From Nitrososphaeraceae archaeon (GTDB taxonomy: Archaea; Thermoproteota; Nitrososphaeria; Nitrososphaerales; Nitrososphaeraceae), in assembly GCA_036554685.1 (NCBI GenBank), contig DATBMS010000031.1, positions 949 to 64,948 on the forward strand: a stretch of DNA of 64,000 nt. The letters run 5' to 3'. The notes under the pieces are model-generated. The model saw only the letters and a program-made list of their open reading frames with translations, had not been told where the DNA came from and did no database searches. Of the stretch, positions 44,066 through 64,000 are shown in pieces. The translations under genes and the position numbers were made by a program. How positions within the stretch are numbered: position 1 is the stretch's first letter; every line of letters starts with the position of its first letter.

Positions 44066-44423
44066 AATTCGAGAGTCTTGATTCCAAATCTTACTTCCGT
44101 AATAAATAGATTCTCCGTTTGACCTTATTATTCAATTATAAATCGATTTGACCACGATTATAATGATACATCTTGATGATTTCAAGAGTATGACTATGAC
44201 ATCAATCTCTTTTTAGCTAGGTCGATGTGTCCTAATTAATCAAAGCTTTACCTTACAAATAATTCTATCAAACACTCATTATCAAACCTACAAACTTGGC
44301 AACTTAGATTAATATTTGACTTTAGTTGACCCAGAAAATATTTCAAGGTATTTGCGTAGTTACAACAGTTTACCGTTCTACTATACTAGAATTAATTTAC
44401 TTGTCGACCTACCAAGAATTGCT

Positions 44424-44756: not shown

Positions 44757-44914
44757 AAAGATCTTTATTATATCCTAAATCCATCTCTTTAAGTCTTTAG
44801 TAATAAACTATCAATGGCGCCAAAATATGGTCATTGTTTATTCTCAAAAAAAATTAACCCAAAACCAAATTGTAAATTTTAGTGATCCTGTGACACATAA
44901 TAGTTAATGATAAT

Positions 44915-45589: not shown

Positions 45590-45883
45590 CTATTTACCAA
45601 AAAATGATCCAAACGAGTCCTTTAGTGCATTAAATGCATCATCTATAATCCCTGAAGTATTCTGCATTATTCCACTATCATTAGACGTGCCTACTGTATT
45701 GGTGTTGTTATCCGGAGTAACTATTCCAGTGGTATTGCCTATCTGTCCAAACGTGTAAGGGTTTGGAAATAAGATTTGAACGACCAGAGAAAGGCAAATG
45801 ATGACCAGGTGAACTAAGTTCATGTGCTTGATAGCAGAAAGATATGAATTAGTTCGTAATATTATTTTCATCAACGGACACAA
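45590..45883 (-). CDS. Small secreted low-complexity hypothetical protein
   Basis: Hydrophobic signal-like segment followed by an N/T/G-rich stretch (NTT, NTS sequons); start uncertain. Confidence 0.55.
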   Translation of the reverse strand: MCPLMKIILRTNSYLSAIKHMNLVHLVIICLSLVVQILFPNPYTFGQIGNTTGIVTPDNNTNTVGTSNDSGIMQNTSGIIDDAFNALKDSFGSFFGK

Positions 45884-46132
45884 CTACTTTTTGATTAAGA
45901 TTTAACTCGACACCTTGTAGAATCAATGCGATATTAAAAGTTTAAAATACAGTGATATGAGCCGGGAAAATTTCTCATGTATATATTTTATCTGAGAGTA
46001 TCTTTTATTTGGAGTTGCTGACCGCCAAGAAACTGATAATTGTTTTATTAATATTCGATTTGAATTCAACTTCGTAAATCGAGTGTAAACGTCAATGAAT
46101 CAATCACTAGCGTCAGTGAATTCGTCAAAGGA

Positions 46133-46805
46133 TTATTGATGCCTTCTTCTTCTCCTAGCGACAAACGAAATATCCTCATTTGCACTCTCTGGAAGATATT
46201 TTTCGTTCGAATAGGTATCAGTAGTTACTTTTAACGAGAGCAATTCGTTTGAAACAAAGAACTTTTCTTCTTTTAAGCCTTGCAATGATAGCCAAACATG
46301 GAAAGATTCGTCTCTCATCTGCTGCAATTTGTATTGTAAATTACTATATTCGAATTTCATCGACTCTACCCATCGAGCATATTGCAGTCCCTCTATGGCG
46401 TCACGAACAGTAAGATTCGCGTTTTTAAGCTGATTATACAGCTGCAAATAGGAGTCGAGATCGTCTTTCATTACATCGTAAAACTCACAGAATTTTTCCA
46501 TATTAATAAGTCGCCTGAATTGCTTTTGTTTTTCTATAGTTTCGTAATCGCTTAGTCCGACTTTAATGGCTACCTGTAGATTTGAATGGCCGGTACGAAA
46601 CAGGTCTAACGCTTGACTATGCTTACTATATGCCGCAGACTTGTCAGCAGGTTCGGGATACCCAGAAATCTTCCTAGAGATTTTTGCATATATCGGTAAA
46701 GGACATACGCACTCGCTTGGAAATTTCCCTGATATTTGCACCAGTTTGTAGTAATTCTATTACCTTTCTTTCCTTTTCTTCTTTTGTCAGGTACACTTTC
46801 TTCAT
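46133..46805 (-). pseudogene. Frameshifted tandem-HTH/coiled-coil protein
   Basis: ATG 46805 gives MKKVYLTKEEKERKVIELLQTGANIREISKRVRMSFTDICK (HTH). Removing one base of the T5 run at 46681-46685 fuses it to ISRKISG..ALDLFRTGHSNLQVAIKVGL (second HTH). Confidence 0.75.
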
Positions 46806-46858
46806 TATATGTAGGTATGCTACAAATACAAACAGATAGACTTTACTCTCGGCATACC

Positions 46859-46934
46859 TTGCTACTTCTTGCTATCAGTTATTGTTGATTGCTACTTCAT
46901 GTTACTACTTGATACACTTGTTACAATAAGCTAC
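46859..46934. repeat. Helically phased ~10-bp repeat array (TTGCTAC-like), probable operator/iteron
   Basis: TTGCTAC 46859, TTGCTAT 46869, TTGCTAC 46889, ATGTTAC 46899, TTGATAC 46909, TTGTTAC 46918, AAGCTAC 46928. Confidence 0.65.
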
Positions 46935-47856
46935 AAGGACTGTTGTGAAACCGTACAAGGAGAATCTCGAAATCGAATATTATTTTGTGGTCTTTGATTT
47001 ATTCTCATTAATTTCTACTTTACATTAATTTCTCCTGAACATGAAAAGACGCTCAAATAAACAACATATAGGCAAGTATATTGATTTTTACATTATTCGT
47101 ATTTGAACTTAGAAAGTACAAGACGGATTTTCAGTGTTCTATTCTGAAGCCGGAAATTCATTAATGGTCAATAATATACTCATAGTCCTGATCTTGACAT
47201 CGCAAAGAATTAACCCTAATTGCAATCCCCAAACTCTTTTTTAAGTCGCTTTGACAGAAAATAATCGCCTTGTAGGTAGTCCTATTTTTTCGCGTCACTA
47301 TCAAATTATGAGTAACGATTTATAATCTACCTGTATCTGAAGGATCCCATGAAGATCTTCAGTTTAAAATATAAAAATCATTAAATGATGAAAAATATAA
47401 AAATTTAGATCTCATTATAGGATCTCTGAATTATTAATTGAAAGCCATATTTACCAAGAGCAGGACGAATTAATATTTACAGTAGAGTTTTAGGTACTGG
47501 GGCCCGATGCTAATTGAACTGTAAATGATAATACGGATCTAATCCCAGAGGAAGTAACTGAGTACTGTAACAGAACTAAATTATAGATTCTGAAATTAAC
47601 TCGTCTAACCTTGAATTCTGTTCACTAGTTTATGTTACTAGTTTCTATGTGTTACTTTTTATTAGGTGTTCGTTTCTGGAAGAGTACCGATTACAAATTA
47701 TCCCAAGAAGGATTCAGATGGTCATCATATAGTTGTAATTTGTATTTAATTTTAGGTCCAATAGTTTGTAATAGAAATTTTATCAAATCTTGATTGCTAC
47801 GTTTAGATTACCAAAAGTTTTTTAATCTACGATTACCTGAACAGGTTAGAAACATA

Positions 47857-49452
47857 GTGGAAATTGGACCTCAAGAACTCTCAGGCTACTATACATATCG
47901 TAGTTTCATAGACATACCATTACCTGTTATTGACTTTAACAAGATAAAAGTATCAGAGGCAGAACTTTTTTTAATCGTACAAATTAATGGTGTAGTAACT
48001 GGCACTCTTTCACTTCCTGCTCAGCCGGGAGCATCTGAAAGGGCTTTCATGGATATCATTGGAACAGTAAAAAGCTGGTGGCCTGAAATCACTCTCGAGT
48101 TTGAAGCTCAAGGACGACCAAATACAACAATTTCTGACTTTTTATACCAATACTCTGGTTCAGTAACAAGAACATGGGAGAATGGAATTGGTCAACGTCT
48201 TTCGTTGTCTGGAACTGAATTTAGAGTTAAGGATCATGGATCGGGAGATCAAACACATAGAGCTGGTGCAACAGCAAGTTTTGTTTCTGTAAAAAGAGAT
48301 TTTGTAGAACCTAGAGAAATTAATGGAGTAGCCATAATTCCAGATGCTTTATCTATGCTAGCATCAAAGTCACACAGACTTGTACATGCAATATGGCACA
48401 CTATTCGTCTGTATGAAATATGGTGGAAAATATTAAATGAAAATGACAAACAAAAGATTCGTAACCTAAATTGGGAACTTGACCGTCACCCTTTCACTGC
48501 AGGTGGCACACTAGACCTGACTAATGGTGCTGGAGAAGATTTTCTCTTTATGCATAGAAAGATGATTGCAATGGTTAAAGACAAATATAAATCACAAGGA
48601 GTTTCTTATATTGAAAGCTGGAAAACACTACCCGTTCCGAGTGCTCAACAGTTCTCGTATTCAGAACAAGAAGATCCTCAAAACCCAGGTAAAAAGATCT
48701 ACAGATTTAATCCATTAGAATCTGGTTATATGATACCATCAGCATATTTCATATCTAATGGTCCTGAATCCGAACAAGAGGACCTTGAAGACCTAAAATC
48801 CCTGATGTTTCTAAAAAGTTCTAGTTACTTCACATCAATTATGAGATATCTTGAAAGGCAATTTAGGGATCATCGTAAGCTTGGTTCTCTTTCACTAGGA
48901 GAATTAGGCAACCTCTTAGAATTTGTAATTCATAACCAAATGCATATGCGATGGTCTAGTGCTCCCATAGATCCACAGACTGGAATACCGCCGATAAATC
49001 CAGAAACTGGAAAACCGACAGGAAGGGGATCATTTGATTTCAACGAGAAATGGGATGATCCAAAATATGACTACCTTGGTGACTTTTATTCATCTCATGT
49101 AAATCCAGTATTTTGGAGACTTCATGGATGGGTGGACGATCGAATAGACGACTGGTTCAACGCCCATGAGGCTTCTCATCCAGGAGAGATTGAACGATAT
49201 CAATACAATGATGTTTCATGGTTCAAACCTGGAAAGTGGGTCCAAGTTTCTCAACCGTTTTATTGGCCTGAGAACCATAATCATACACATACAGGAAGTG
49301 GGTTGAGCTCAATCGAAAATATGCTAAAAGTTATGGAAATTATAGAGGAGGCCATACAAAGAAATCAAGAAAGAGCCGACGTTAGATTTTTAGCAAGAAA
49401 ACAAGTCTTTAATATCATGACATTTATGCAAGATATTTTAACCAATTTATAG
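47857..49452 (+). CDS. PvdP-like tyrosinase (beta-barrel + type-3 di-copper domain)
   Basis: HRLVHAIWH, GEDFLFMHR, HNQMHMRW, SSHVNPVFWRLHGWVD give six His ligands; N-terminal YTYRSF..FVSVKR domain; likely GTG start 47857 (ORF track 47794). Confidence 0.85.
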   Translation: MEIGPQELSGYYTYRSFIDIPLPVIDFNKIKVSEAELFLIVQINGVVTGTLSLPAQPGASERAFMDIIGTVKSWWPEITLEFEAQGRPNTTISDFLYQYSGSVTRTWENGIGQRLSLSGTEFRVKDHGSGDQTHRAGATASFVSVKRDFVEPREINGVAIIPDALSMLASKSHRLVHAIWHTIRLYEIWWKILNENDKQKIRNLNWELDRHPFTAGGTLDLTNGAGEDFLFMHRKMIAMVKDKYKSQGVSYIESWKTLPVPSAQQFSYSEQEDPQNPGKKIYRFNPLESGYMIPSAYFISNGPESEQEDLEDLKSLMFLKSSSYFTSIMRYLERQFRDHRKLGSLSLGELGNLLEFVIHNQMHMRWSSAPIDPQTGIPPINPETGKPTGRGSFDFNEKWDDPKYDYLGDFYSSHVNPVFWRLHGWVDDRIDDWFNAHEASHPGEIERYQYNDVSWFKPGKWVQVSQPFYWPENHNHTHTGSGLSSIENMLKVMEIIEEAIQRNQERADVRFLARKQVFNIMTFMQDILTNL

Positions 49453-50010
49453 TAACGGTGACCCATTTATCATTTTATCTCTTTAATCTAACTTAATATT
49501 ATCTGATATAACAGTCCTTTTTTATAGAATTGCTATAACTTTATTAGAATTTTAATTTCATCGGGCCGGATACTTTTCAAAATATGACCAACATTCTTCT
49601 AATCGTATTAAAATAAACTCGTGATTATTAGAATTACTAGAACGATCTCTATGGTAAATTTGTTTGATTTTTTGTATTTTAATGGATTTCTGCGACTGCT
49701 TCGCATAAGCACTATTACTATGATTATCATTATTCAAGCCGAGAACCTGTACTAGATTTTAATTTCTAAACATTTTTTAGAATGTGATAGAATTTTATAG
49801 TGTTAAATGAATTATCAATTCAATTCTTTCCTTACCAGAACAAAATGTTTTGATGATCACTTTCAATTGGAAAGACTCATTGTAACAAGCAGCATGTTCG
49901 AAACTAATTAGTTATGCAGGTACATTAATTGCATCTAGGAATTAATATTAGAGTTATGAAATTTATATTGTTTGATAGGCACTGAGTCAAGTCCCCCATA
50001 AGGGTAAGAT

Positions 50011-50907
50011 ATGTTTATATGCGATCTGGCCCGTTTTGAATTGAGAAATATTGGTCCAATGGTCAGCAATAGTGAGGTGGAGAATGTGACAGGTTTTGAT
50101 CAAGGTTTCCTCTCTGTGGTAATCAATCTTCCTACTTTATCAACATCAAATAAGGAAAATGCGTTCAGTATTAATGGGTCAGAAGTGATCGACTATACTC
50201 ACTTTTCACTTTCTGTCAATAAGGTGCGAAGATTCGCATTTTGGGTGGCTTGGAATATAGATGGTGGGAGCATCCGTAGGCTGAGCCGCAAGGGTATTCC
50301 GTTCATTATTGATCCGCGAGTTCCGCAGGAGTTCCAAGTGGGTGACGAATTATATGCAGGGAATCGGCTAGATCGCGGTCACCTCGCCCGTCGTGCGGAC
50401 CTGCTCTGGGGAGCGCCTGCAGAAGCGGAGAAGGCTAACAAAGATTCGTTCTTCTTTACCAACATTACTCCTCAGATGGATGATTTCAACCAAGGACAAA
50501 GAGGGGGGTTATGGGGTCGATTGGAGGACGCAGTTTTTGAGGATACAAATGTGGAGGACTTGAAAGTTAGTTTATTCGGTGGTCCGGTTTTTCGTGATGA
50601 TGACCGTAATTTTATGAATTTGAAGCTTCCTCGAGAATTCTGGAAAGTGATAGTGTTCGTGGAGGATGGGATACTTAAGGCCAAAGCATTCTTACTTGCA
50701 CAGAACTTGGATGAACTAAAAGCCTTTGAACTTGATGCGTTCAAGGTGTATCAAGTAGCGCTGACAGAGGTTGAGGAAAGATGTGGACTAATATTTCCTG
50801 ACGCTCTCAAGGGGGCAGATTCCGTGGGAAGAAGCCTAACGAGTGCACGAGAGGTTTTAAGTGAACGCAAGCCGCTTGCATCACTTAAAGGTATAGATTG
50901 GTCTTAA
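50011..50907 (+). CDS. DNA/RNA non-specific endonuclease (NucA/EndoG, beta-beta-alpha-Me)
   Basis: YTHFS, AWNIDG, DRGHL, FTNITPQ..FNQ..W..LE, GGPV, P.EFWKV. Confidence 0.92.
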   Translation: MFICDLARFELRNIGPMVSNSEVENVTGFDQGFLSVVINLPTLSTSNKENAFSINGSEVIDYTHFSLSVNKVRRFAFWVAWNIDGGSIRRLSRKGIPFIIDPRVPQEFQVGDELYAGNRLDRGHLARRADLLWGAPAEAEKANKDSFFFTNITPQMDDFNQGQRGGLWGRLEDAVFEDTNVEDLKVSLFGGPVFRDDDRNFMNLKLPREFWKVIVFVEDGILKAKAFLLAQNLDELKAFELDAFKVYQVALTEVEERCGLIFPDALKGADSVGRSLTSAREVLSERKPLASLKGIDWS

Positions 50908-51475
50908 AATAGTTGAATGCAGTTACGGCTGTAATCTCTTTCCTTTTATCATTTCCTTATTGATTGAAGAAATATTTTCATATCAGCCTATAACGCATGG
51001 ATTCATCCTTAGATTTTATTGCAAAGGGTTATTCACTTTTTCTGAATCGTTCCCTTAAGTGTAATAAAATCAAAGAAATTGTTTAAAATAGGTACATACA
51101 TCCTATTTCTTGGTCAAACTATAAGTAAAAGGTTAGTCTTTCACAGAATTTTTAATAAATTAAATCCCAACAGTTACTTTAATAGAGAACTAAATCCTGT
51201 TTGGGTTGCTCCATTAGACTGAAGATTATTTCAATAAGATCGGCCAGTACTATTTGTCTGTCTGCCGTTAGTTATCTTATTGTTAATCACCGATCTTCCA
51301 CTTGCAGGTTCGACTAATCCAGGGTACGTGGTCGGTTTTACTTTCTTGGGTATGTCTGAAGATACAGTATTGGCTGTGGGTATCTTTATTGGAATAGTTC
51401 TCATTCCGATGGGAATATTCATAAAACTAAACGATCTCATGATTACAGTTCTATCTTAATGAAAATTAAAAATTC

Positions 51476-51507
51476 TTAATGAATAAATGGATTAATGAAT
51501 AAATGGA
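51476..51507. repeat. Perfect 16-bp tandem duplication
   Basis: TTAATGAATAAATGGA x2. Confidence 0.8.
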
Positions 51508-51728
51508 AATTGTCCCCAATGAAAATCATGAATATCATAGCAGGCCCGTCGGTACCCGCGACGGGATCGGTTCTAAATTAGGATTCTAGATTTAAAAAAG
51601 CTTTAATGTTTTCTTAACGGTAGAATCATAAATGACTCAATTTATATTCATTTTATATTAGATTCGCAGTTCATCTTAATCGTGGACCAATACTTGAATA
51701 TGAGACTTGACTAACACATGAGCACCAA

Positions 51729-51983
51729 CTAATTCGCTTTCCTAATTTTTTCCGCCAGAAGAGTTGTGCCGATCAAAAACCCGTCGCATTCGACTACTTG
51801 TTCTACGTACTTCATTAATTCGACATCGTCGAATACGGGACCATTCTTACGACGCAAGATGTAACGGGCATTGGCAGTTTCTATAAAGATGGCTTTCCGT
51901 TCGCTCTTGCTTGTCTCGCCGTACGATCCTCGTACAACACGACCGCGCACGGCAGTCACCCGACTTGGCCGTGCCGAACTCAT
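51729..51983 (-). CDS. Small basic beta-rich (OB-fold-like) partner protein of the C25 peptidase
   Basis: 84 aa from ATG 51983, 10 bp after the peptidase stop; GRVV..SKSERKAIFIET...YILRR..G..F.D. Confidence 0.75.
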   Translation of the reverse strand: MSSARPSRVTAVRGRVVRGSYGETSKSERKAIFIETANARYILRRKNGPVFDDVELMKYVEQVVECDGFLIGTTLLAEKIRKAN

Positions 51984-51993
51984 GACAATATGC

Positions 51994-53529
51994 CTAGCGT
52001 TGATGATAGATACGGTAACCAACTATGCGGCCGTTTAATTCTTTGGCCACGACAGCAATACCTCGCTTTATCTTTTCATCCTTCTTTCCTTTTGGTATCG
52101 TTATGGTCACAAGGTAACGTGACGGCACAGTTGTAATCTTTGTCATCCGATCTTTTACTGTGGATGGAACTTGTACAGCAAAAGCTATAAACTTCTGTTT
52201 ATTGCGAAGTCCCGCACGCTTAGTTATGTTGTTTAGCGCGGCTGTTGATTTCGATGACAGTTTATGTATTGGTATCCTTTTGGATGCGGTGGGCTTGGTC
52301 TTGGCTAGAAAATCTCCAGTCATCTTCAACTTCTGCCTGCGCTCAATTCGGGAGAACCGTTCTGCATCGGCTTCATTTACCCCCGTCGGTACAACTTTCC
52401 CGCTGGGCTGAGCGATGGGTTGCACGCTAGGATCACCAAGCAAACAAAACTGTGCGAGGGTCTTGAGATCAAATGCATCCATTTGTGCAGTATTTCCTAC
52501 GAATTGCTGACGAGCCATTAGCGCAGCACGACCTACAGAGGCGCCATTCAACACATTTTGAAGATAGTATTGGCAGATAAAATCCGCTGCTCCGTTGCTA
52601 TCTGCCGGACCGTAAGCTATAGTTGTGCTGCCAAAATATCCGTAGCTCCCTTGTTCTAGATAGCTTTGGCAGATAGGTCTGTCTATCGCCAATGTAATCG
52701 AATCGTAAAGCTCTGCACCATAGCAACATTCTACGGCTGCGACCGTGCCTTCGGGGATCTTGCCGCTGATCGATTTGGTAGTCAGTGATACAGGATAGCT
52801 GTTACCCGATTGGCCATAAAACTCGGGTGATGCTGGACCACCATGACAGTTGATGAAATGCATAGGAGGACGTAATTTGTTCTTCGGAAAGTTGGGACCT
52901 GACGGCGGTGCAAGAAGCAGGTTGTCATCACTTCCAAACAAGTTCTTGACACTTATCCGAGAAGAGCCTTGCCAAACCTTCGCAGAAAGACCTATATAGC
53001 TTTTGTAGTCGTCTAGTAACGCCATTTTGTAGTTTACTACTTTTTTTAGCAATGAGATGATATAAGACGGTTCAGTAGCGCTGAACAAATCTGGAAGCCT
53101 CCCCACTACTCGCGTTGGACCTACAAAGAGAGATGGATCTCTTGAATAGGGCGTATCACATGCGTATGGCAAATCACTCCAGACTTCTCTATCATCGTCC
53201 TTACCTGGAATATAAGCAGGGTTATCGAGATCTTGGTGTGGAACTACATCCGGGGCGCCCAAAATCATTATATAATGGGGATTGAATGATTTGAACACAG
53301 CATCGATTGCCTCTTTGTTCTCACGCGGGTCTGTTGCATTAGTCACAGCCTTGCCGCGAACCTTTTTCATACTTGATTTATCATCAAGATAAATAACATT
53401 GGTCTTAATTCCGCGTTCTTTATCTGATGCTGATAATTCAGTGAGCGCCTTACAGATCCTCGCGAGACCCTTGTCCTCATATTTCTTAATCAAGGCATTG
53501 CTATTGGTAACGATTATTTTGTCATCCAT
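51994..53529 (-). CDS. C25 (gingipain/caspase clan CD)-like cysteine peptidase, no signal peptide
   Basis: MILG..DVVP, SDLPY, VGRLP, FINCHG (His), VECCYG (Cys), GST.IAYG, F.LLGDPS. Confidence 0.82.
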   Translation of the reverse strand: MDDKIIVTNSNALIKKYEDKGLARICKALTELSASDKERGIKTNVIYLDDKSSMKKVRGKAVTNATDPRENKEAIDAVFKSFNPHYIMILGAPDVVPHQDLDNPAYIPGKDDDREVWSDLPYACDTPYSRDPSLFVGPTRVVGRLPDLFSATEPSYIISLLKKVVNYKMALLDDYKSYIGLSAKVWQGSSRISVKNLFGSDDNLLLAPPSGPNFPKNKLRPPMHFINCHGGPASPEFYGQSGNSYPVSLTTKSISGKIPEGTVAAVECCYGAELYDSITLAIDRPICQSYLEQGSYGYFGSTTIAYGPADSNGAADFICQYYLQNVLNGASVGRAALMARQQFVGNTAQMDAFDLKTLAQFCLLGDPSVQPIAQPSGKVVPTGVNEADAERFSRIERRQKLKMTGDFLAKTKPTASKRIPIHKLSSKSTAALNNITKRAGLRNKQKFIAFAVQVPSTVKDRMTKITTVPSRYLVTITIPKGKKDEKIKRGIAVVAKELNGRIVGYRIYHQR

Positions 53530-53776
53530 ACAAATCTTGGTACATAATAAATGATAACTTATGTAAAAGTTTTCTTCCTATGATTAAATTGTCCACAACC
53601 GGCACGGTAGTCAATCCAATACTTACGAATGTTATCTTCTAAAAATCAAGGCTTTAAAGCTAATATACTTATTTGCCAATTCATGCAATCGCATAAATCA
53701 ACTCTACGTAAGAACTAGTAATGCATGTATTGCTTAATCGCTGATTGTACACAAGTGTATTGCATTTCTGACGACA

Positions 53777-53965
53777 TCAATGATCAGTGTCTTTCTGACT
53801 TGTAATGGAAGCATCTGGGCAATTGTCTCGGAAGTCGGACACTCCGTCATTATCGTCATCATTATCCGGATCGCATATGTCTCCTATGCCGTCATGATCA
53901 GAATCTTTTTGATCTGAATTCGGAGCGAGTAAAGGATTGTCACTTACATCTAGTAGACAGAGCAT
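53777..53965 (-). pseudogene. Remnant of thrombospondin type-3 (Ca-binding) repeat protein
   Basis: [37 protein letters not shown], truncated by a stop mid-repeat; no signal or anchor. Confidence 0.65.
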
Positions 53966-54259
53966 AAATAGCGTCTATTGATTAAGAGCGATAGAGAATT
54001 TAGAAAGCCTTGATTATGCTTGATGGGTTGCGTTTTTTCAATACAGATTATGAATAATAGTGTTACTGAAATTGGTATATCATTAATCCAAAATAGCTTA
54101 GGCCCTCAATAAATGAACGAATAAAGAACTTGCCTGCCTTAGGTTCAAATAAAATTTATGAGAAGCGGTTGGGATACGAATGAATATTCAATTGAACTTA
54201 AATGGATTAAAGAAAAAAGTGCTAATAAGGGCTCAATGGCTAAGGGGTGAGTAATGAAT

Positions 54260-57115
54260 TTAAACTAATTCTACTATCTCGCCTGAGTCGTCATCCAAGA
54301 TAATCCCTGAATATTTAATATTGAATACCGATGTATTAGGCGTTGTCTCCACCTTTGCAGATATAATTTCCCATGTTCCAGTATTAGGTTCAGTTCGTAA
54401 ATACATTGGAAATTTCCTTATGTCAGTAGTGTCAATAAATGGATTTCTTGGATCGTTAATTGTGGAATCTTCAACATTACCACCAAATCCAAATACTAGC
54501 GACACAGTTTGATGCTTCAAGTGAAATGGATTTGCATCACTGTCGCCATCCTTTCTACATCTAAATTCTCTTCCGGCAATTCCAAGATAAACCCTATCAT
54601 CTTTGTTTATATCCTTCTCGCCTGTAGTAACAGTGAGATTTATCTGTGATATACCTTGTACAGGAAACATATTTCTCTGTCCTATGTTATTGTCATTTGG
54701 TACCAATCTCCAGTCAAGAATAGTCTCACCTGTTGTAAAGTTATCCATGTTGCTCGCATCATTATCGGCAGATACTACCATAATTACAGAATCATGACCA
54801 TGAGCATTTATTTCAGGTATCCAGTCAAACGGTCCTATTATTTTTTCTTCAGTATTATTAGCTGCAACAGTTCCAGCGGATAATTCAGCTATTGTGAGTG
54901 GTTGAATATCATCTGGTAGCAATAGACCAGCTCCAGGTCTACTATGATAACCGCGAACTCTAACGTTATTAGCGACCTCAGTACCTCGATTTTTTATTTT
55001 GACATAAATGTAATTAGTTGATCCAACAATAGGTTTTTCATGTACTGCTAATGTATCTGCTTTTCTCCTATTCCATATCGAAGTGTTATTCCAATGTATT
55101 GGTTGAAATTGATATTCTCCATTTCGACCGTCATCAATATAGACATCTACTGGAGGAGGCGCGCCTTCAGTAGTTACATTTGGAGGAGCAGGTGCACTAG
55201 GTGGTTGATATAGTCCCTGTTTCTCAAATGACCAACGGATCACTTTATTATAAGCACCGCCAAAAACTCCTTCTGTAGTCCAATTTAGAAGATCTACTGC
55301 CATTAATGCATTGGCAAAACCTAATGCATTGTCTGGATTTGTTGCTGGAGTAAGGGTACTAATTGCTCGTAGGATTAAATATGCCATCATTCTAGATGAA
55401 AATCTTTTTCTCTGTGCGTCAGTAGAATCACCACCAATAGAACGATATATTCTAAAAAGCGTAGTTGCAAGGATTTGTTCAGCTAAATAACCTGCCGGAT
55501 CTATAGAAGTAAATGGATTATCATTTGGACCTCCCCAAGCCCAGCCTGCAAGTACATCACGATCAAAACGACGAATAGGTCTCCATGGTGTATATAAAAA
55601 TCGATCGGGGGCTATTGAATCTGGGTCATTTACAACAGATGCAAGACTATCTCCCGCACTATGCGAAAAGCCAAAGTTTGCGGAATCTACATGTTCATAT
55701 AAAACGCCGTGCCCCCCAAGTTCGTGGTAGTGAACCCAAGGATCACATGCTCTGCCTACAGGATTTGTTGTATCCGTAAGGTCACCTAGACCATAACAAC
55801 AATGATCTATACCACCGGTTCCATTTCCAACACAATGTGCATTGATAGCATTACCTAGTCCTCTATGATCAACTTCTATTGGAAATGCAGTTCCATCAAA
55901 GTAAGAAGAAATAGGAAAGCCCAAACTTTCAACTAAAGCAAGGAATCGTTCAGTATGATAATAAGCACTTACAGCTGCGAAATCATTAGTTCTAACATCG
56001 TAATTGAAGTCGGCACCAGTGGGATTTGTTGGAGAAGCAATATTTGGAATTTCAACATTTGTAATATTTACATGAGCTCCACTTAGCGATTGTAAGTTAC
56101 CTACCGGTAAATTGAGATTATTTAATACTTCTGGTGATCTAAATGGATTCAATATTGCATTACTTTGATCTGGAGAATGTACCGCATTACCTGAAATAGA
56201 AATGGGATTATGTTTAAACACTTGTCCATTAACATTTGCTGCCAAAGCTCGCAAATAAAGTACAGACTTTGTTTCAAGTTCGACCAATGCAATCCAATTG
56301 ATTGCCCCATATTCTTCAGTTGTAAATGAAAAAGTGATTTCATCTACAACATAATATTTATCATGCTTTATCTTATTGTTTACTGGATAAAGTGGCAATA
56401 TTGGTATTTCTTGTCTTATATTTTCAAAATCTTGAGCTTCCTTATCTTTATTTACTTTTCCAGATGTGTCTATTTTTGGTAACTTTGGAAGTCTTTTATC
56501 TTTATCATATTTATAGACATAAAGGCGTCTTCTAATTAGATGTGCATTATTATTTATTCTTTTTTTGGCAGTTTTTTTTAACTTATCTTTATTTATTAGA
56601 CTGCTTATGAAGTTACTTGACACTGATTCCTTTTTCTTGTAAGAAAACGATTTTTTCTTGTCTCTTTGTTTTTTTTCATTACCTATATAAAATAACTTTT
56701 TATGACGTTGAATTATATTTGATGGCGGCAGTTTGGCAACAATCCCTTTTTGACTGTTATTCACTGCGTGAAGTATACGATATTTACTATCTTTGAGGGA
56801 TGGAGTATGTTTAACAGTTACGGTTATTCCTGCATGCCAAATTGGAAGATTAAGATATGTTTGAGAGAATTCCACTGTCGTAGAATCAAAAAATTGTTTT
56901 TGTTTAGAAAGTCTGTATTGTACATCTTGTTCTAATGGATGATCAAAGGAAACTTTTTCATCTACGTTATTTAATGTTTTTTCAGGAACCTTAAAAATAT
57001 TTACCACACTTTGTAAGTAATTGATAGCAGCATCAAGTGGATTTTGTGCATTGGATTTCCAATTTTCCTGAAAGTGATTAATGCCTCTAACGTTTTCATT
57101 TTCATCTATAGACAA
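54260..57115 (-). CDS. M36/thermolysin-like zinc metalloprotease with propeptide, CARDB-like and C-terminal beta-sandwich domains
   Basis: F.Q.Y..LPIW propeptide pattern, F.AVSAYYH, INAH, HELGGH, HSAGD; C-terminal IYVKIKNRG...A.NV.V..Y. Confidence 0.75.
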   Translation of the reverse strand: MSIDENENVRGINHFQENWKSNAQNPLDAAINYLQSVVNIFKVPEKTLNNVDEKVSFDHPLEQDVQYRLSKQKQFFDSTTVEFSQTYLNLPIWHAGITVTVKHTPSLKDSKYRILHAVNNSQKGIVAKLPPSNIIQRHKKLFYIGNEKKQRDKKKSFSYKKKESVSSNFISSLINKDKLKKTAKKRINNNAHLIRRRLYVYKYDKDKRLPKLPKIDTSGKVNKDKEAQDFENIRQEIPILPLYPVNNKIKHDKYYVVDEITFSFTTEEYGAINWIALVELETKSVLYLRALAANVNGQVFKHNPISISGNAVHSPDQSNAILNPFRSPEVLNNLNLPVGNLQSLSGAHVNITNVEIPNIASPTNPTGADFNYDVRTNDFAAVSAYYHTERFLALVESLGFPISSYFDGTAFPIEVDHRGLGNAINAHCVGNGTGGIDHCCYGLGDLTDTTNPVGRACDPWVHYHELGGHGVLYEHVDSANFGFSHSAGDSLASVVNDPDSIAPDRFLYTPWRPIRRFDRDVLAGWAWGGPNDNPFTSIDPAGYLAEQILATTLFRIYRSIGGDSTDAQRKRFSSRMMAYLILRAISTLTPATNPDNALGFANALMAVDLLNWTTEGVFGGAYNKVIRWSFEKQGLYQPPSAPAPPNVTTEGAPPPVDVYIDDGRNGEYQFQPIHWNNTSIWNRRKADTLAVHEKPIVGSTNYIYVKIKNRGTEVANNVRVRGYHSRPGAGLLLPDDIQPLTIAELSAGTVAANNTEEKIIGPFDWIPEINAHGHDSVIMVVSADNDASNMDNFTTGETILDWRLVPNDNNIGQRNMFPVQGISQINLTVTTGEKDINKDDRVYLGIAGREFRCRKDGDSDANPFHLKHQTVSLVFGFGGNVEDSTINDPRNPFIDTTDIRKFPMYLRTEPNTGTWEIISAKVETTPNTSVFNIKYSGIILDDDSGEIVELV

Positions 57116-57536
57116 TTTAGCTCTTAGATCAGAATTAAAAATTTCTTTTATTTCGCTAACACCTCTAAATCAATCTTGTTATCAATTTCTAGAAAGGGTA
57201 ACTTGCATAACATGCATCTTAATAAATGCAATATTATTTATGCCTTTTTAGTCCATTCTTGCAGATTCTAAAGCTTTAAACGAGCCGTCTTTATCTTTTG
57301 TATTTAACTCCATGGTAACGGTGAATCTTTGTTCATTAAACTCCTTCGCAAGAATCAGGAAAACAGATTTCTTACTTCGTTAGATAGCTACGCGACTCGT
57401 CAGGAACAAGTTCCGCAAACCTTGGAAATTTAAAATAATCAATGAAGTTAATAATCAGTTCTTACTTATTGCCACTTCTCTTTTTGATCCATTTCTTTAA
57501 CACCGTATGGATTTTTTTCTTTTCTTTCCTTTATCA

Positions 57537-57555
57537 ATTTTTCGGCGCCGAAAAA
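57537..57555. repeat. GC-core palindrome, copy 1
   Basis: ATTTTTCGGCGCCGAAAAA; perfect 18-bp inverted repeat at 57538-57555. Confidence 0.85.
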
Positions 57556-57973
57556 ATATACTTATTGAGTAACAGACTTCATAAGAGATTGTTGTACTCT
57601 ATATAATAAATTTCTTAAATACATGTGAATTTTATATCGAACACGGTTGGGACTAGTACTGCCTCACGTTTGATAGAATTATCTTTGGTTGAATCGATGG
57701 AAATCATAATTATCATAGGTAAATGTCTTAATATGCTACTATTAATCTTTGTTACCAAGCCTTTGTGGATTTTAAAGACATAAAATACTCTTCATACACG
57801 AAGTCGGACTGGTATCTAAAAATATTTCAAGTAAAAATTCAGTTTGATGAAAAACCATATAAACCCTAACTACAAATCCTAACCAAATGATATGCATTGA
57901 AATAGATGGTATTACAAGTATAAACCTAATTAAACGTAGATTTCGACTCCATGATAGGAGAGATAATTAAGAT

Positions 57974-59341
57974 ATGTCCAAAGAAAAAAAGACAACGGCA
58001 GATGATGGTGGAAAGAAAACAGTAGTTGATGAACAAAATCGGGTTCAAGTTATTGTTGAGCTTACTAAACCAAAAAGCAAAGCATTGAGTGCTATGTCCT
58101 TAGCAGAAAATTTGAGTCAACAAGGATTTGAATTGGATACTGAGTACGGAACTATCCCTATGACTCCAAGTAAGGATCTTGGCCCTAGCTTAAAATCAGA
58201 AGGGAAGGAGGTTGTTCTTATAAGAGGTAAGGTTGATAAAAACAAGATCAAGGAGCTTGAAGATCAACCTAACGTTATCAAGGTTTGGGAAGATACGGAG
58301 GGAATCCAACCATTTGATGATAAAGATAGCAATTTCGTTGAAATGACTCCAGTTGCTAAGGGGCCTTGTCCGATACCTCCATGTGATTGTAATCCTGGTA
58401 CTCCAAGGGGAACTATTAATGATGTAGTAGAATTTCTTGGAGTAGATGCGATTCATGCGGATGGAATCAAAGGACAAAATATTGTTGTTGCTGTTCATGA
58501 TGGGGGGATTACTGCAATAGGTAAAACTACGAATCCTTCAGATACGAGTAATCCTAGATGGCCAGGAAAGCTTATTCCAAATGTAGTCGATGGATCTAAT
58601 CCCGACTGGGGAACTACTGGTGTAGATTGGGGATGGCATGGAAACATGTGCGCGACTGATGTTCTCGGAATGGCACCAGAAGCAAAAATCTATGACCTTA
58701 GAATTAAATCTAATGTATTATCAAGTGCACTTGCAAATTTCCAATGGGCTATCGATAGGCATAAGGCAGATGGAACCCCTCACATTATTACCAATAGTTG
58801 GGGTTTTTTTCAAAAGGCTTGGGATCCTGATTACACTACCAATATAAATCATCCTGTTACTCGGAAAGTAATTGAAGCTATTGATGAGGGCATAATCGTT
58901 CTCTTTGCTGCAGGCAACTGTGGTGGCAATCCTTGTTCAGATAATCGATGCGGAAACGATACTGGTACAGGAAAGAGCATTTGGGGTCCAAATGGACATA
59001 ATCGAGTAATTACTGTTGCGGCGGTTAACAAGAATGAAGAGTACGTAGGTTATAGCAGTGTTGGCCCGGCAATCCTCGATCCAAAGAAACCAGACTTTGC
59101 CTCCGTTACACATTTCACGGGATTTTTCAATAGTGATAGTGGAACCTCAGCTGCAACCCCAATCGCAGCAGGTGTTACTGCACTTTTGAAACAGGCTTCT
59201 CCAGGACTTACACAAGATGGAGCTAAAGAGGTACTTATGGTGACTGCTAAAGATAAAGGTCCCTCCGGTTGGGACATTTTTCTAGGTGCAGGGATAATTC
59301 AGGCAAAGGTGGCATATAATCATCTGAAGTCTAACAGTTAG
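57974..59341 (+). CDS. Subtilisin-like S8 serine protease with N-terminal prodomain, no signal peptide
   Basis: Catalytic triad VAVHDGG / WHGNM / SGTSAATP, oxyanion FAAGN; GGAG upstream of the ATG. Confidence 0.92.
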   Translation: MSKEKKTTADDGGKKTVVDEQNRVQVIVELTKPKSKALSAMSLAENLSQQGFELDTEYGTIPMTPSKDLGPSLKSEGKEVVLIRGKVDKNKIKELEDQPNVIKVWEDTEGIQPFDDKDSNFVEMTPVAKGPCPIPPCDCNPGTPRGTINDVVEFLGVDAIHADGIKGQNIVVAVHDGGITAIGKTTNPSDTSNPRWPGKLIPNVVDGSNPDWGTTGVDWGWHGNMCATDVLGMAPEAKIYDLRIKSNVLSSALANFQWAIDRHKADGTPHIITNSWGFFQKAWDPDYTTNINHPVTRKVIEAIDEGIIVLFAAGNCGGNPCSDNRCGNDTGTGKSIWGPNGHNRVITVAAVNKNEEYVGYSSVGPAILDPKKPDFASVTHFTGFFNSDSGTSAATPIAAGVTALLKQASPGLTQDGAKEVLMVTAKDKGPSGWDIFLGAGIIQAKVAYNHLKSNS

Positions 59342-59857
59342 GTAACGAGCTGACCTACTCGAACCCTTATGGGAGACCGATCTCAATGCAGATGTGGACA
59401 CTTTTCTAATATTTGTAATATTCATAAATGGATTCAATTCTATTATAATCAGTCAGGACTTATGGAGTTTGAGATATCAACATGGCCTTCCAACCCTCAA
59501 TGATATTTTGGAGATTAGTTGGTCGATCACTTGATACAGGTTTAATGATATGATAACAAGCAAGACAGGAAAAAGAGGGTAAAGAATTTAAATTACGAAA
59601 CTTAGTGCTGAAAATATGAAAGAGACGCTGATCGACTACGAGATAGTTAGGAACTCGTCATTCTAGAATTTATTTGATGTCCCAACCAGTGATCAATGAT
59701 ATTATTTGTTCTCAAAGATTCCAAGGAGTGTGCAATTTTGTAGATGTGATATAATACATACTACGAACTCCTCGATAAGCCATTGCAATTTGGAATAAAT
59801 TTTTCATCAGTTGAACTAGCAGTAAAATCATTTATAGTAGGTTTGCCGCTTTCATAC

Positions 59858-60457
59858 ATGACTAAATATTTAATCAAAGGAAAAATTAATGACGATAATG
59901 GTGCACCAATTGCTGATTTACATTTACAGGCGATGGATAGCGACCAACAGTTGTTTGAAGATCATAATGATGATCTTTTAGGGTCATCAAGATCTATTTC
60001 AGATGGGTCATTTGAAATTCCCATTGATGAATCAACCTTTAAAGACAGTTGGTTGGAGAAAAACCCCGAAATCTATCTAATACTCCGAAACGAGCATGGT
60101 CAAGTTGTTCATAGGACAGAAACCATCAAGGTCAAATCGGATGAAAATGTAAATGGAATTATCACTATTCCAGCTAATATTACCATAAACCAGAAACAGC
60201 AGCAAATAAATCTACCCAATACAAGCCTTTATTGGAATAATCAAAGAATTCTATCGGCCTTTTCCTCCATAGGAGATACCACCACCCTGAACAATAGCGA
60301 ATTTCAAAGGAATTTTAGACTGTTAATTAGTTCAATTAATGCGTGGTTAACCTATACTAACGACGTCATTTGGAAAAAAATTGGATATGATGGACCTCAG
60401 GTTCCTCGTTATCCTTGGAGGGTACCGGACCATCGTCACAAACTCGCTTGGGAGTAA
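59858..60457 (+). CDS. Transthyretin/carboxypeptidase-regulatory-like domain protein
   Basis: IKG.I.D.NG.PI..L...AMDSD..F..DDLLG....DGSFEI...NPEIY; likely start ATG 59858. Confidence 0.7.
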   Translation: MTKYLIKGKINDDNGAPIADLHLQAMDSDQQLFEDHNDDLLGSSRSISDGSFEIPIDESTFKDSWLEKNPEIYLILRNEHGQVVHRTETIKVKSDENVNGIITIPANITINQKQQQINLPNTSLYWNNQRILSAFSSIGDTTTLNNSEFQRNFRLLISSINAWLTYTNDVIWKKIGYDGPQVPRYPWRVPDHRHKLAWE

Positions 60458-60462
60458 AAAAA

Positions 60463-63162
60463 TTGACAAATTGCATATATGGAACTGAAACATTCGAACG
60501 ACGTAAAGAATTTTATAAAGTAATAAACTCAGATGTAGTTTGTAATGTTGACGTATGCGTTATCGGTTCGGGTGCAGCTGGTGCGATACTGGGAGCTAAA
60601 CTTGCACAGGCGGGAAAATCGGTTGTCATATTAGAAAGGGGCCCATATTACGATGGCGAATCTATGAACCAGAGGGAAGCCGACATGATACCAATTTTAT
60701 GGAAAAATGCTGGTGCAAACTTTACGTCAAATTTACGAATTGCCATCGCTCAGGGGTCGTGTCTAGGTGGCTCCACTGTGATAAATGATGCGGTCTGTTT
60801 TAGAATCCCCGACATTGTTATTGACCAGTGGCAGAAAATGGGCGTTTCGATTTCAAAGTCTGAATGGGATAGTGCTAACGACGAAGTTTCAAAGCGAATT
60901 AATGTAACACTAGTAACAGAAGAAGAGCTGAATACTAATGCAAAAAAATTGAGAGAAGCCTGCCAAAAATATCTCCACGAAGGAAATCACATAGCTCATT
61001 CTAATAATCATAGAAACTGTGGATCTTCACTATCGGATCCTTCCCTTAAATCGTGTGTAAAGTGTGGTTTTTGTCACATGGGATGCCATTATGATACCAA
61101 ACAAAGTATGTTAGTAACTTATATTCATGACGCATTAAATGACGATAAGTTAAATTATAATGCGTATTGCAATTGTCGAGCTGATTCAATAACGTATAAT
61201 AATGGAATTGCCACCGGAGTTAATGGAACATTCATCGATTCAAACGGTTCGGAATCATACAGAATTCGTGTCAATGCAAATGTTGTTATAGTATCGGCGG
61301 GCGCTATAGCATCTTCAAATCTCTTGCAAAAGTCTCAAATTGGTGGGCAAAATACTGGAAAGGGACTTGCGCTACATCCTGCACCTTTTGTTATGGGATT
61401 ATTTGAAGACGAAATTTATGGTAACAGAGGGATCCCCATGTCTTACACGTGTCACGAATTTGGCATAACAAATGGAATAGAAAAAGGAGGATTTTTAATA
61501 GAGAGCATATTTTTGCCAATTTTTCAGATGGCGCTTGCCATACCAACTCTTGGGTTTGATCATAAAAGAATGATGGAAAACTATAATAGATACACAATGG
61601 CCGGAATATTGTCGCGGGATGATTCTGTAGGAAAAGTCTCGATCTCGTATAATGGTAACCCAAAAGTAATTTATAGTTTGTCAGATCAGACTATAGAAGA
61701 TATGGCCAGGGGTATGGGGATCTTGGCTAGGATGTGGTTTAGTATTGGTGCAAAATCCGTGATTACGTCTCACAGAGATGTCCCAGAGATAGCAACTAAA
61801 GCTGACGTACCCAAATTAAAAGACGCAGTAAGAGAGAATCCGAACAACCTTATGCTCGGCTCGGCACACCCGCAAGGAGGCAATAGGATGGGTAACAACG
61901 AAAGAGAGTGCGTGGTAGATTCCGATTGTAAGGTGTTTGGATTTGATAACCTCTACGTTTGTGATGCAAGTGTTTTCCCTACGGCACTGGGAGTTAATCC
62001 GCAATTGACTGTAATGGCACTTGCAGCAATAACCGCTGACAAGATTATCAAAAAGTGGAAAGATAGAAATATCGAGCTGATCTATGGTAACACCTGTCAT
62101 CTAACACAACCAAGATATTGCAAAACAGAACAAATATCAGAGCATTTTGCCGTAGTAGAACATAACGACAAGCTTTTTAGCTCTCTTTCCAATTCTGACG
62201 AGGACAAAATTGTTGTTGGTAAGAACTGGAAATTTGATCCAATAACGCTTAAAATTTATAACAATTTGTACTGGAAAGGATTCTACGGTAGGGATAGTGA
62301 TCTAATGACGATTGCCCTACAATACTTTGGAGGATTTTATAAAAGATTTGGCCGCCTTAATAATGGCAAGATGGAGGGAACTACGCATCCTTTTGAAACT
62401 CCAATTGTAAATGCCAAAAATATTGCTTCTGAAAAAAACGTTCCTGGATACGGCAAAGTAATCCATCTCGAGTACACCGAATTTCCTTATTCTACGGCAT
62501 ATGACCTGTTAAAGATGGTAGACGAAAATACCATTCTTGGAAAAGCATTTTTGGGTCCTTTTCCCAAGGGAAGAGAACTATTTAGCTTTAGTATGTCTAG
62601 AATATATGATGTAAATTTCCTCACAGAATCGGATTTGATGACATTGTTTCACAATGGTGAATTCAGCCATAAACCAAATGAAAAAGAGCTAGTGGGGACT
62701 TGGGAAGGCATGCTGGTTTCTGATTCGTCGCTATCCCCGCGATCACAGCAATTTTATTTTAATTATGAAGATGGCGAAGTTGATATGAGATATTCTTTCG
62801 CTAATTTGTTGACTGGAAGATCGGATGTTACTACCGAAGGAAGTGTGCTGCGTCTGGATGATCCCACTCCTTTTCATGATGAAATTAGAATCGTGAGTCC
62901 AAATTTCGCTGTAGGTGTATGGATGAGCGAATGGTCTTCTAAAGATAGTTTACAACCAATTATAGACGACTTGCGCAGATATTTCCCAATTGGAATATCC
63001 AACAATGATATTTTAGAAAATAAGCTTTCATTTTTAGAGCGACTTCGGTTGCGAGGAATTCCATTACCCAAAGAACTAGGTTTAAGTTTCCTTCATGTTG
63101 AGGAGAATCAGAAACATGAAACAAGGGTGGGTTTATTGTATGCTCTAAAAAAGGTATCATGA
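60463..63162 (+). CDS. GMC-family FAD oxidoreductase fused to a ~350-aa C-terminal extension
   Basis: IGSGAAG, LERG, LGGSTVIN, C..CG.C.MGC, SAHPQG, DASVFPT.LGVNPQLT; likely TTG start 60463 after GGAG. Confidence 0.9.
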   Translation: MTNCIYGTETFERRKEFYKVINSDVVCNVDVCVIGSGAAGAILGAKLAQAGKSVVILERGPYYDGESMNQREADMIPILWKNAGANFTSNLRIAIAQGSCLGGSTVINDAVCFRIPDIVIDQWQKMGVSISKSEWDSANDEVSKRINVTLVTEEELNTNAKKLREACQKYLHEGNHIAHSNNHRNCGSSLSDPSLKSCVKCGFCHMGCHYDTKQSMLVTYIHDALNDDKLNYNAYCNCRADSITYNNGIATGVNGTFIDSNGSESYRIRVNANVVIVSAGAIASSNLLQKSQIGGQNTGKGLALHPAPFVMGLFEDEIYGNRGIPMSYTCHEFGITNGIEKGGFLIESIFLPIFQMALAIPTLGFDHKRMMENYNRYTMAGILSRDDSVGKVSISYNGNPKVIYSLSDQTIEDMARGMGILARMWFSIGAKSVITSHRDVPEIATKADVPKLKDAVRENPNNLMLGSAHPQGGNRMGNNERECVVDSDCKVFGFDNLYVCDASVFPTALGVNPQLTVMALAAITADKIIKKWKDRNIELIYGNTCHLTQPRYCKTEQISEHFAVVEHNDKLFSSLSNSDEDKIVVGKNWKFDPITLKIYNNLYWKGFYGRDSDLMTIALQYFGGFYKRFGRLNNGKMEGTTHPFETPIVNAKNIASEKNVPGYGKVIHLEYTEFPYSTAYDLLKMVDENTILGKAFLGPFPKGRELFSFSMSRIYDVNFLTESDLMTLFHNGEFSHKPNEKELVGTWEGMLVSDSSLSPRSQQFYFNYEDGEVDMRYSFANLLTGRSDVTTEGSVLRLDDPTPFHDEIRIVSPNFAVGVWMSEWSSKDSLQPIIDDLRRYFPIGISNNDILENKLSFLERLRLRGIPLPKELGLSFLHVEENQKHETRVGLLYALKKVS

Positions 63163-63200
63163 GTGCTTTCATAGACTCAATGCTTGTAGCAAGTAGCAAT

Positions 63201-63218
63201 ATTTTTCGGCGCCGAAAA
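63201..63218. repeat. GC-core palindrome, copy 2
   Basis: ATTTTTCGGCGCCGAAAA, identical to 57537-57554. Confidence 0.85.
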
Positions 63219-63798
63219 GTTTCGTACTTTAAATTAATCAATAAACTAAAAATAAAAAAAAGCGCGAAAGTGTAAGGCCTCAGCTATGGAACATTTCAAT
63301 ATTTCGTAGATTTTATTTGACATATAGTTTGATCATTATTTTTTTCGCATATTCAAATTACATCTATTTGTATGATATTGTATAAGCATTACAAGTTTTG
63401 CGGATATGGATCATACTTAGATAATGCTACGTCCAATTCATGTCCAGCTACATTAAATCCTTAGACAATGGGAGATACAAACCATGACATTTCCGCGGAT
63501 AAGAGATTCATGAAAGAAGAATATCCATAAAGTTATCCAGTTGTTCCTTTGGAGGGATTTGGATTTTTGTGCAACGCGATGAGAATAAAGTAAAATATTT
63601 CTATATGGCTCTTGACCCTATTTGATTTGTAAAGTCGGCAATTTGTTATAAAAAAGCCTAAATACATACTATTGATTACATTTGTAATGTGCCTATTTGG
63701 CTATATTGCTTCAATATTGACCGGGAGATTAAAACCAATTGAATCTTAAGATATTAAACGAGCTTAAACCAAATGTATTACAATACCTTCCTTATGGG

Positions 63799-64000
63799 GT
63801 GACAACGCTTGAAATCAAGATTGATGGAGACATTGATGAACTATTAGGCTATATATGTCCTATTAAGATAGCAGATAGACAAAAGAAACTCTTTGTTGGA
63901 TTTGCGGACGAAAGTGAAGACCTTTTGGTACTTTGGGGTGGGGGAAGTGAAGAAGGACTTAAGCTTACAAATACGAATGTCAGTGGGAGAATGTATTTTC
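63799..64000 (+). CDS. 5' part of hypothetical protein, runs off the window
   Basis: Open frame from GTG 63799: VTTLEIKIDGDIDELLGYICPIKIADRQKKLFVGFADESEDLLVLWGGG... Confidence 0.5.
   Translation, partial: MTTLEIKIDGDIDELLGYICPIKIADRQKKLFVGFADESEDLLVLWGGGSEEGLKLTNTNVSGRMYF

Follow-up and report, generated by a model that had tools for sequence, protein, structure and literature searches.

Gene content of the island

The 64,000 bp stretch of DNA analysed here (the window) corresponds to positions 949-64948 of contig C32 in assembly G000, a 1.08 Mb genome that is 62% complete and was placed among soil Nitrososphaerota via homologues labelled Nitrososphaeraceae or Nitrososphaerales. Near one end, the window carries an accessory island with six enzyme genes, which a first-pass annotation had assigned to a clan-CD cysteine peptidase, an HExxxH metalloprotease, an S8 subtilase, a NucA-type nuclease, a type-3 copper protein (tyrosinase) and a GMC oxidoreductase. 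All six open reading frames (ORFs) are intact and include catalytic motifs, and these family identities are supported by sequence comparison (Table 1). Two small genes absent from that annotation, at 51729-51983 and 59858-60457, encode proteins of 84 and 199 amino acids (aa) that accompany the cysteine peptidase and the GMC oxidoreductase, respectively. As judged from homologue N-termini, the likely starts of the tyrosinase and GMC genes are a GTG and a TTG codon, respectively.

Table 1 Features of the island and its borders, in window coordinates
Feature	Position	Strand	Remarks
PvdP-like type-3 copper protein (tyrosinase), extra N-terminal domain, signal-less	47857..49452 (longest ORF from 47794)	+	Single-gene cassette
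NucA-type (Endonuclease_NS) nuclease, DRGH at 121	50011..50907, likely start 50059	+	PF01223 E 1e-44
45-bp dispersed repeat, imperfect inverted repeat	51543..51587	.	Between cassettes
84-aa unannotated C25 partner	51729..51983	-	10 bp downstream of C25; conserved G-x-K-S-E and LRR motifs
Clan-CD (C25-like) cysteine peptidase, signal-less	51994..53529	-	Putative catalytic His229-Gly230, Cys268/Cys269
Thermolysin-like (M4/M36-fold) metalloprotease, 951 aa	54260..57115	-	Propeptide, HELGGH + His485, Ig/CARDB domain, PLAT-like tail (predicted)
Palindrome, consensus AWTTTTTCGGCGCCGAAAAAWT, copy 1	57536..57557	.	Intergenic
S8 subtilase, signal-less, N-terminal prodomain-like region	57974..59341	+	PF00082 E 3e-29; D176, H222, N315, S392
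Membrane-protein gene remnant, frameshifted (206-214-aa parent)	59380..59621	+	Found by blastx and blastn
199-aa GMC partner	59858..60457	+	5 bp upstream of GMC; weak transthyretin-like lead only
GMC oxidoreductase, long unannotated C-terminal part	60463..63162	+	PF00732 and PF05199, both above cut-off
Palindrome copy 2	63200..63221	.	ParB-like gene start ~2 kb beyond
First part of 418-aa unannotated gene	63739..64000	+	Homologues flank GMC pair in G183, G186 and G107

The closest homologues of the nuclease are trypsin-NucA fusions of 633-644 aa found in relatives, and the window copy consists of the nuclease only; no trypsin gene occurs in the island or its spacers, nor any trypsin remnant upstream of the nuclease. 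The subtilase has the Asp-His-Ser triad plus the oxyanion Asn, and a 70% identical homologue in genome G064 is placed among other proteases. In the GMC oxidoreductase, GSGAAG, H485 and N528 (ORF numbering) match the GxGxxG motif and the His/Asn pair of the family. The 199-aa gene immediately precedes the GMC gene in all 14 other GMC loci (L136-L149), and its product is apparently fused to a distant GMC protein in L248; the two form a fixed pair. ORF residues 558-842 of the GMC protein also occur as stand-alone proteins of 320-365 aa in several family genomes, and belong to no Pfam family.

The absence of Sec and Tat signals held up in a simple test. A charge-free hydrophobic-run heuristic, used in place of SignalP and flagging 9 of 11 positive controls, flagged none of the window proteins, and the Tat motif is absent. 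Start correction was considered as a source of signal peptides, and reading upstream in frame adds no more than 18 residues. Among 50 island-type proteins, the genuine flag was one surface C11 protease. The prodomain-like N-termini noted in the first-pass annotation were likewise recovered, as a propeptide in the predicted model of the metalloprotease and as a prodomain-like N-terminal region in the subtilase.

Independent movement of the units

The genes alternate between strands and the spacers between units measure 516-858 bp, so the island is not an operon. GC content at third codon positions (GC3) of the island genes is 0.20, 0.27, 0.285, 0.34, 0.43, 0.43 and 0.51, the genome mean being 0.30 (standard deviation 0.03, n = 456); the metalloprotease marks one extreme (0.20), and the nuclease, C25 and the 84-aa partner the other (0.43-0.51). 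Codon composition so varied suggests differing origins.

Of 89 archaeal loci examined, 48 contain a homologue of the six enzymes, and 43 of these contain one, five contain two and none contains three. Across 150 family genomes, homologues were found in 13 (tyrosinase), 14 (nuclease), 28 (GMC), 8 (metalloprotease, one full length) and 2 (S8, at E<=1e-30); C25 occurs in 1 of 39 genus genomes, a tally that takes in G020 and G034, which are flagged unpublished. Three different neighbourhoods (L244; L245; L246/247) carry the metalloprotease gene at 95-96% DNA identity, none of them with the tyrosinase, nuclease, C25 or S8 gene of the window; a fourth carries it at 88%. In the 95-96% copies, homology reaches 135-255 bp beyond the gene on the upstream side and 50-95 bp on the downstream side, and by these alignments the gene moves singly. 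Among 80 metagenome metalloprotease loci, the tyrosinase, C25 and S8 of the window were found in none, a GMC homologue (29-46%) in three and NucA (36%) in one; among 80 GTDB C25 loci, none has the tyrosinase, nuclease, metalloprotease or S8, and one has a distant GMC.

At the same chromosomal site, four related genomes were read. G013 has a 92% identical tyrosinase. In G022 the site is occupied by a papain-like protease together with an M4 protease next to which lies an emfourin-like gene, and in G010 and G021 by other genes; in the near-complete G010 and G023, the only match to the island is the 45-bp repeat. The six units move independently, and the same site holds different cargo in relatives.

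These results bear on the zymogen cascade that the first-pass annotation had put forward, in which one protease activates another and the series ends in a nuclease or in a melanin-like oxidative output. Propeptide-bearing proteases are indeed present, and tyrosinases of more than one type are repeatedly found close to the GMC pair or to the metalloprotease (L131, L165/166, L175, L253, L257); a proteolytic cascade is also proposed for trypsin-NucA systems in the accessible text of PMC7159879. Contigs of three soil RNA libraries, mostly at least 99% identical, map onto the nuclease, C25 and S8 genes, which is a hint of expression only, as the libraries may come from one campaign and DNA carry-over is possible; no such contig covers the spacers or most of the metalloprotease, a gap that proves nothing. 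Against a dedicated cascade stand the ceiling of two homologues per locus, a near-identical metalloprotease lying among different genes, the alternating strands with long spacers, the mixed codon composition and a nuclease without an adjoining trypsin. A PADLOC 2.0 run gave only a generic subtilase match (9e-12) and a desaturase FAD motif, and no system. We therefore regard the cascade as very improbable.

A family-wide pool of signal-less proteases

Pfam searches of 120 hand-picked neighbours revealed a broad accessory pool. Its proteases comprise C14, C1, C11, CHAT, trypsin, S8, M4, M6, M10, M12A, M14 and M28 members, and it further includes classical tyrosinases, two inhibitor types lying beside proteases (emfourin and chagasin, I42), TIR-SIR2, nSTAND1, SLATT, ParB and receiver domains. 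Conflict-type genes, namely TIR-SIR2, nSTAND1, SLATT, CHAT and caspase next to TPR genes, adjoin some of the GMC and tyrosinase homologues. The defence or cell-death theme suggested for the window thus stands at the level of the gene pool, through these neighbours in relatives, and does not stand for the six-gene set itself.

Enrichment was assessed with 38 protease references, most of them Pfam-verified, excluding references from a genome's own sequence. The test loci (426 kb) contained 29 signal-less proteases, spread over 17 of 33 loci and 12 of 22 genomes; 40 regions taken from these genomes without selection (486 kb) contained one, and 20 regions around a control gene (359 kb), itself patchy and present in 54 of 151 genomes, contained none (Fisher p = 4e-5, an overstated value). 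A second G000 cluster from which no enrichment reference was taken (G000:C66:9969-23690) encodes a V8-like trypsin, an M14 protease, a caspase and an astacin within 10 kb. In the complete genome G064, the sole caspase and the sole astacin lie within 5 kb of the S8 homologue, and in G103 the sole M14 lies about 2 kb from a ParB-like gene. The alternative offered in the first-pass annotation, a hotspot of unrelated acquisitions, is supported as regards the hotspot; "unrelated" says too little, the corresponding sites of relatives being enriched in signal-less proteases, tyrosinases and NucA nucleases.

Further observations concern individual loci. The C66 cluster also carries, by eye, a CHAT-like protein of 1118 aa and is bracketed by two palindrome copies; a 200-bp stretch of the window (63362-63559) is 71% identical to C66:20313-20514. 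A same-genus island in G022 (L165/L166, contig C16) contains a classical tyrosinase, a His-rich upstream gene, ParB-like and SLATT genes and a GMC pair, together with MAP3K_TRAF_bd/TPR-S, TIR-SIR2, nSTAND1-TPR and TIR-Ig proteins. Three syntenic loci of genus g23 (L179, L181, L182) share a trypsin-NucA fusion, an M6 metalloprotease and an M14 carboxypeptidase with a small upstream gene, and two of the three have an extra trypsin.

A neutral origin of the theme, by recombination at shared flanks from a few donor regions, would make it a mark of common history and not of function. The gene remnants at 59380-59621 and 46133-46741, a coding density of 0.78 in the island vs 0.89 in the remaining window, insertion sequence (IS) elements by many palindromes and stop codons in several tyrosinase homologues agree with this. 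All six genes are nevertheless intact with their catalytic motifs, partner genes stay coupled, and the recurrence of at least 12 unrelated families of protease is hard to account for by a single donor block; we hold a neutral origin to be unlikely.

Slightly less probable still is a signal-independent exit, through vesicles, lysis or an unrecognised system, after which the enzymes would break down or cross-link organic matter of the soil or the matrix of biofilms. Secreted enzymes do provide the closest solved folds, and the Ig/CARDB and PLAT-like tails here, like the peptidoglycan-binding or FG-GAP domains of some pool members, suggest extracellular substrates. The window proteins, however, have no hydrophobic signal, and no contractile-injection tail-sheath gene was found, a weak negative in a 62%-complete assembly. 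Caspase, TIR and STAND neighbours and inhibitors of cytosolic type, whose action we take to be intracellular, also fit a role inside the cell.

The C25 protease and its 84-aa partner

H229-G230 and C268-C269 are retained without exception by 121 homologues of the cysteine peptidase, and the nucleophile is presumably one of the two cysteines. The protein scores 21.5 bits against PF01364 (gathering cut-off 23); 22 of 32 C25 homologues match that family at E<=0.001, and both C25-partner fusions pass. Its structure model is poor (predicted local distance difference test, pLDDT, 60), with gingipain K as a weak fold match (E 0.027) and a best Z of 6.8 to unrelated Rossmann-like domains. A PDB sequence search with the C25 profile was empty and the single protein as query gave no GTDB match in the first scan; the family comprises 2673 homologues among 8000 candidates. 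In a FastTree phylogeny with midpoint root and no clade test, archaeal C25 proteins form one well-supported set, including three unassigned proteins, among bacterial sequences.

The 84-aa gene, as detected with a hidden Markov model, follows C25 in 75 of 80 loci, and the contigs of the remaining five end within 37 bp. At E<=0.001 its family counts 734 representatives, and natural C-terminal fusions to C25 were found twice among the best 150 (P0293, P0355). A PDB sequence search with the partner gave matches only at chance level, and the predicted complex of the two proteins scored 0.24 (mark 0.32). C25 and the 84-aa protein form a fixed pair. They are a well-defined two-protein target, distributed over many bacterial phyla and including a partner that belongs to no Pfam family.

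The metalloprotease

Across 25 homologues, H464-E465-x-x-G468-H469 and H485 are invariant. Foldseek matched the predicted model (pLDDT 66) to aureolysin, fungalysins and propeptide chains at E 3e-5 to 9e-4. An FTP domain was found in 3 of the 25 homologues and an M4 or M36 catalytic Pfam match in none; a PDB sequence search with the window protein was empty, and its tail has relatives among stand-alone PLAT-like proteins. In HExxH proteases of the M4 and M36 families, a downstream Glu is the third zinc ligand. The window protein resembles these thermolysin-like enzymes in its predicted catalytic fold and its propeptide, and differs from them in having HELGGH with the invariant His485 in place of HExxH plus the downstream Glu. 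On the model and the motif, it is predicted to work like M4/M36 enzymes and would form a separate family. Some bacterial-type homologues (P0163, P0164, P0226 and others) are fused to an S1/P1 nuclease domain.

The palindrome and ParB-like genes

Four copies of TTCGGCGCCGAA occur in the 1.08 Mb of G000, two in the island and two on contig C66, with 0.01 expected. The consensus spans 22 bp and its flanks are unconserved (72 contexts). Its 14-mer is present in 43 of 151 family genomes, including 21 of 21 from genus g33 and 0 of 21 from g23; the reversed 14-mer, as a control, gave one match in each of three genomes. In G101 and G082, the sole copies lie within the tyrosinase loci. ParB-like genes are present in 8 of 40 palindrome-centred regions and in 0 of 60 controls, several copies lie just beyond the 3'-end of a ParB-like gene, and IS elements are found near many of them. 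In G093 and G103, where the motif is absent, variant palindromes lie just downstream of 4 of the 7 ParB-like genes scored. Both the 22-bp palindrome and ParB-like genes are clustered with the pool.

Variant perfect palindromes lie 820-1020 bp from the start of a ParB-like gene in L388, L391, L385 and L389, whose genomes lack the CGGCGCCG form. The only ParB-like gene found in the G000 assembly (G000:C32:66221-67090) lies beyond the window, 2 kb past palindrome copy 2, and behind it come genes for surface proteins with signals, a second S8 among them. All six palindrome copies of G104 fall within 64 kb (G104:C41:38626-101973), together with a tyrosinase, two ParB-like genes and transposases.

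Other readings were considered. We rejected a bacterial-type terminator on the ground that the T-run comes before the GC core, and a fixed-position operator is unlikely because the distance to the flanking genes varies from about 40 to 1200 bp. A link to a prophage or virus was set aside, viral contigs giving one unrelated match. The parS/ParB and KorB-O_B systems are examples of dispersed operators. Like their sites, the window palindrome is short, perfect and dispersed, has unconserved flanks, often lies by a ParB-family gene and has variants elsewhere; unlike them, most g33 copies have no ParB-like gene within 10 kb, and no ParA was noticed, by eye, beside the ParB-like gene near the window. 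By analogy, the palindrome is likely to be a parS- or KorB-operator-like site, and is predicted to bind a ParB-like protein.

Borders and genome context

RNA polymerase genes, named from sequence, end about 3.8 kb before the island. The remnant at 46133-46741 is a frameshifted gene at its left edge, and the same family is present in L224. Further copies of the 45-bp repeat occur in G000, in L245-L247 and in 5 of 5 genus genomes searched, and copies are clustered on a single G010 contig. The membrane-protein gene of which 59380-59621 is a remnant precedes the GMC pair in G022 and G131, and the frameshifted remnant upstream of the GMC pair is a junction mark. A Pfam scan found no integrase among the island ORFs, no tRNA gene was found at the island, and no att-type flanking direct repeats were found in window positions 44000-64000; because the repeat scan covered that range, a larger integrated element could still be present. 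The description of the host as an ammonia-oxidising archaeon is supported by the labels of its relatives only; amoA was not found, in a search that a 62%-complete assembly renders uninformative.

Interpretation

The locus is a themed accessory hotspot and not a zymogen cascade, and a role shared by its enzymes is inferred only. It is probably a mosaic of six separately moving units at a variable site. These would come from a pool of signal-less enzymes found across the family, and the enzymes are likely to act singly in stress or conflict. The units would be the tyrosinase, the nuclease, C25 with its small partner, the metalloprotease, the subtilase, and the GMC oxidase with its partner, and the island would serve as a landing site for DNA circulating among Nitrososphaeraceae. 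Each protease probably resides in the cytoplasm in a restrained form, the metalloprotease and the subtilase by virtue of their own propeptides and C25 through the 84-aa protein as inhibitor or adaptor, like the emfourin and chagasin beside other pool members; damage, infection or lysis would set off self-processing and so free the enzyme. In relatives a trypsin gates the nuclease, and the window copy has likely lost it. Probably bound by a ParB-like protein, the palindrome is likely a remnant or marker of the mobile DNA on which the pool travels.

Several observations weigh against this picture. Some selection for combinations is possible because five of the 48 loci hold two homologues and because L253 combines a metalloprotease (75%) with NucA, a classical tyrosinase and caspases. 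G013 is 59% complete and its contig stops at the tyrosinase site, so a longer shared block is still possible there. The enrichment p value is too strong because related loci enter it, because the references themselves derive from such islands and because they miss HtrA-type trypsins; test loci of G138/G179/G130 and of G183/G186 are syntenic and hence not independent, and the control gene may be less mobile than the test genes. Among bacterial homologues, protease neighbours are found at only 3 of 77 loci for C25 and, for the metalloprotease, at 5 of 65 more distant loci. Palindrome-centred regions, a weaker prospective test, contain proteases in 7 of 40 cases, or 6 of 39 without the reference source, and the G064 protease cluster lacks the motif.

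In a bolder version of the mosaic, soil Nitrososphaeraceae would draw on interchangeable cytoplasmic zymogens, oxidases and nucleases, housed in islands where a palindrome bound by a ParB-like protein puts unrelated cassettes under joint control. Such a set would be an archaeal equivalent, without operons, of the conflict systems that proteases trigger in multicellular bacteria, and its members would include an undescribed clan-CD protease and its partner. We consider this doubtful.

Signal-less proteases, together with tyrosinases, GMC oxidases and NucA nucleases, can be viewed as one class of foreign genes clustered in variable islands. The palindrome provides a searchable tag, and hence a route to such islands and to testing protease-gated defence or cell death in soil nitrifying archaea. 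No literature on these islands or the palindrome was found, subscription papers and supplements lying outside the search; we could not find the palindromic tag described, and supplements may bear on its novelty.

Comparison with known systems

The tyrosinase resembles Pseudomonas PvdP in its catalytic domain, matching PvdP structures at E 3.5e-54 with aligned histidine motifs. It has no Pfam match, and differs from PvdP in scoring 239.5 bits against the equivalog NF051454, below the cut-off of 625, and in having no Tat motif and no pyoverdine genes nearby. C25 recalls the gingipains through its His-Gly and Cys motifs and its weak PF01364 and gingipain K matches. Set beside what we take to be the gingipain architecture, it has no signal peptide, its domain begins at residue 1 without a separate propeptide being seen, its C-terminal region is different and it has an obligate 84-aa partner. 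Like protealysin-emfourin and papain-chagasin, C25 is a signal-less protease followed by a small gene; both types of pair occur in the pool, and one directly adjoins a C25 pair (L031). The 84-aa protein differs in being unrelated to emfourin or chagasin, and its role as an inhibitor is putative.

Nitrososphaeraceae gain and duplicate foreign genes, and lateral gain is known in the order (PMC7603488, whose main text does not contain the words "protease" or "peptidase"). With the thaumarchaeal integrated and integrative-conjugative elements, as presented in the accessible text of Krupovic et al. 2019 (PMC6563490), the island shares cargo, a nearby ParB-like gene, gene sharing and, in loci related to the window, CheY-like receiver genes; it differs in having no integrase, flanking direct repeats or tRNA and in cargo that changes gene by gene. 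In that text, the string "palindrom" occurs only in the reference list. The nearest described system is the NucA-trypsin "System 3" among the NucA-peptidase conflict systems, found mostly in alphaproteobacteria according to the accessible text of Kaur et al. 2020 (PMC7159879). The window departs from it in having no fused or adjacent trypsin, no EAD domain seen and no operon, and resembles it in its NucA-type nuclease, in the S8 subtilase nearby and in closest nuclease homologues that are trypsin-NucA fusions.

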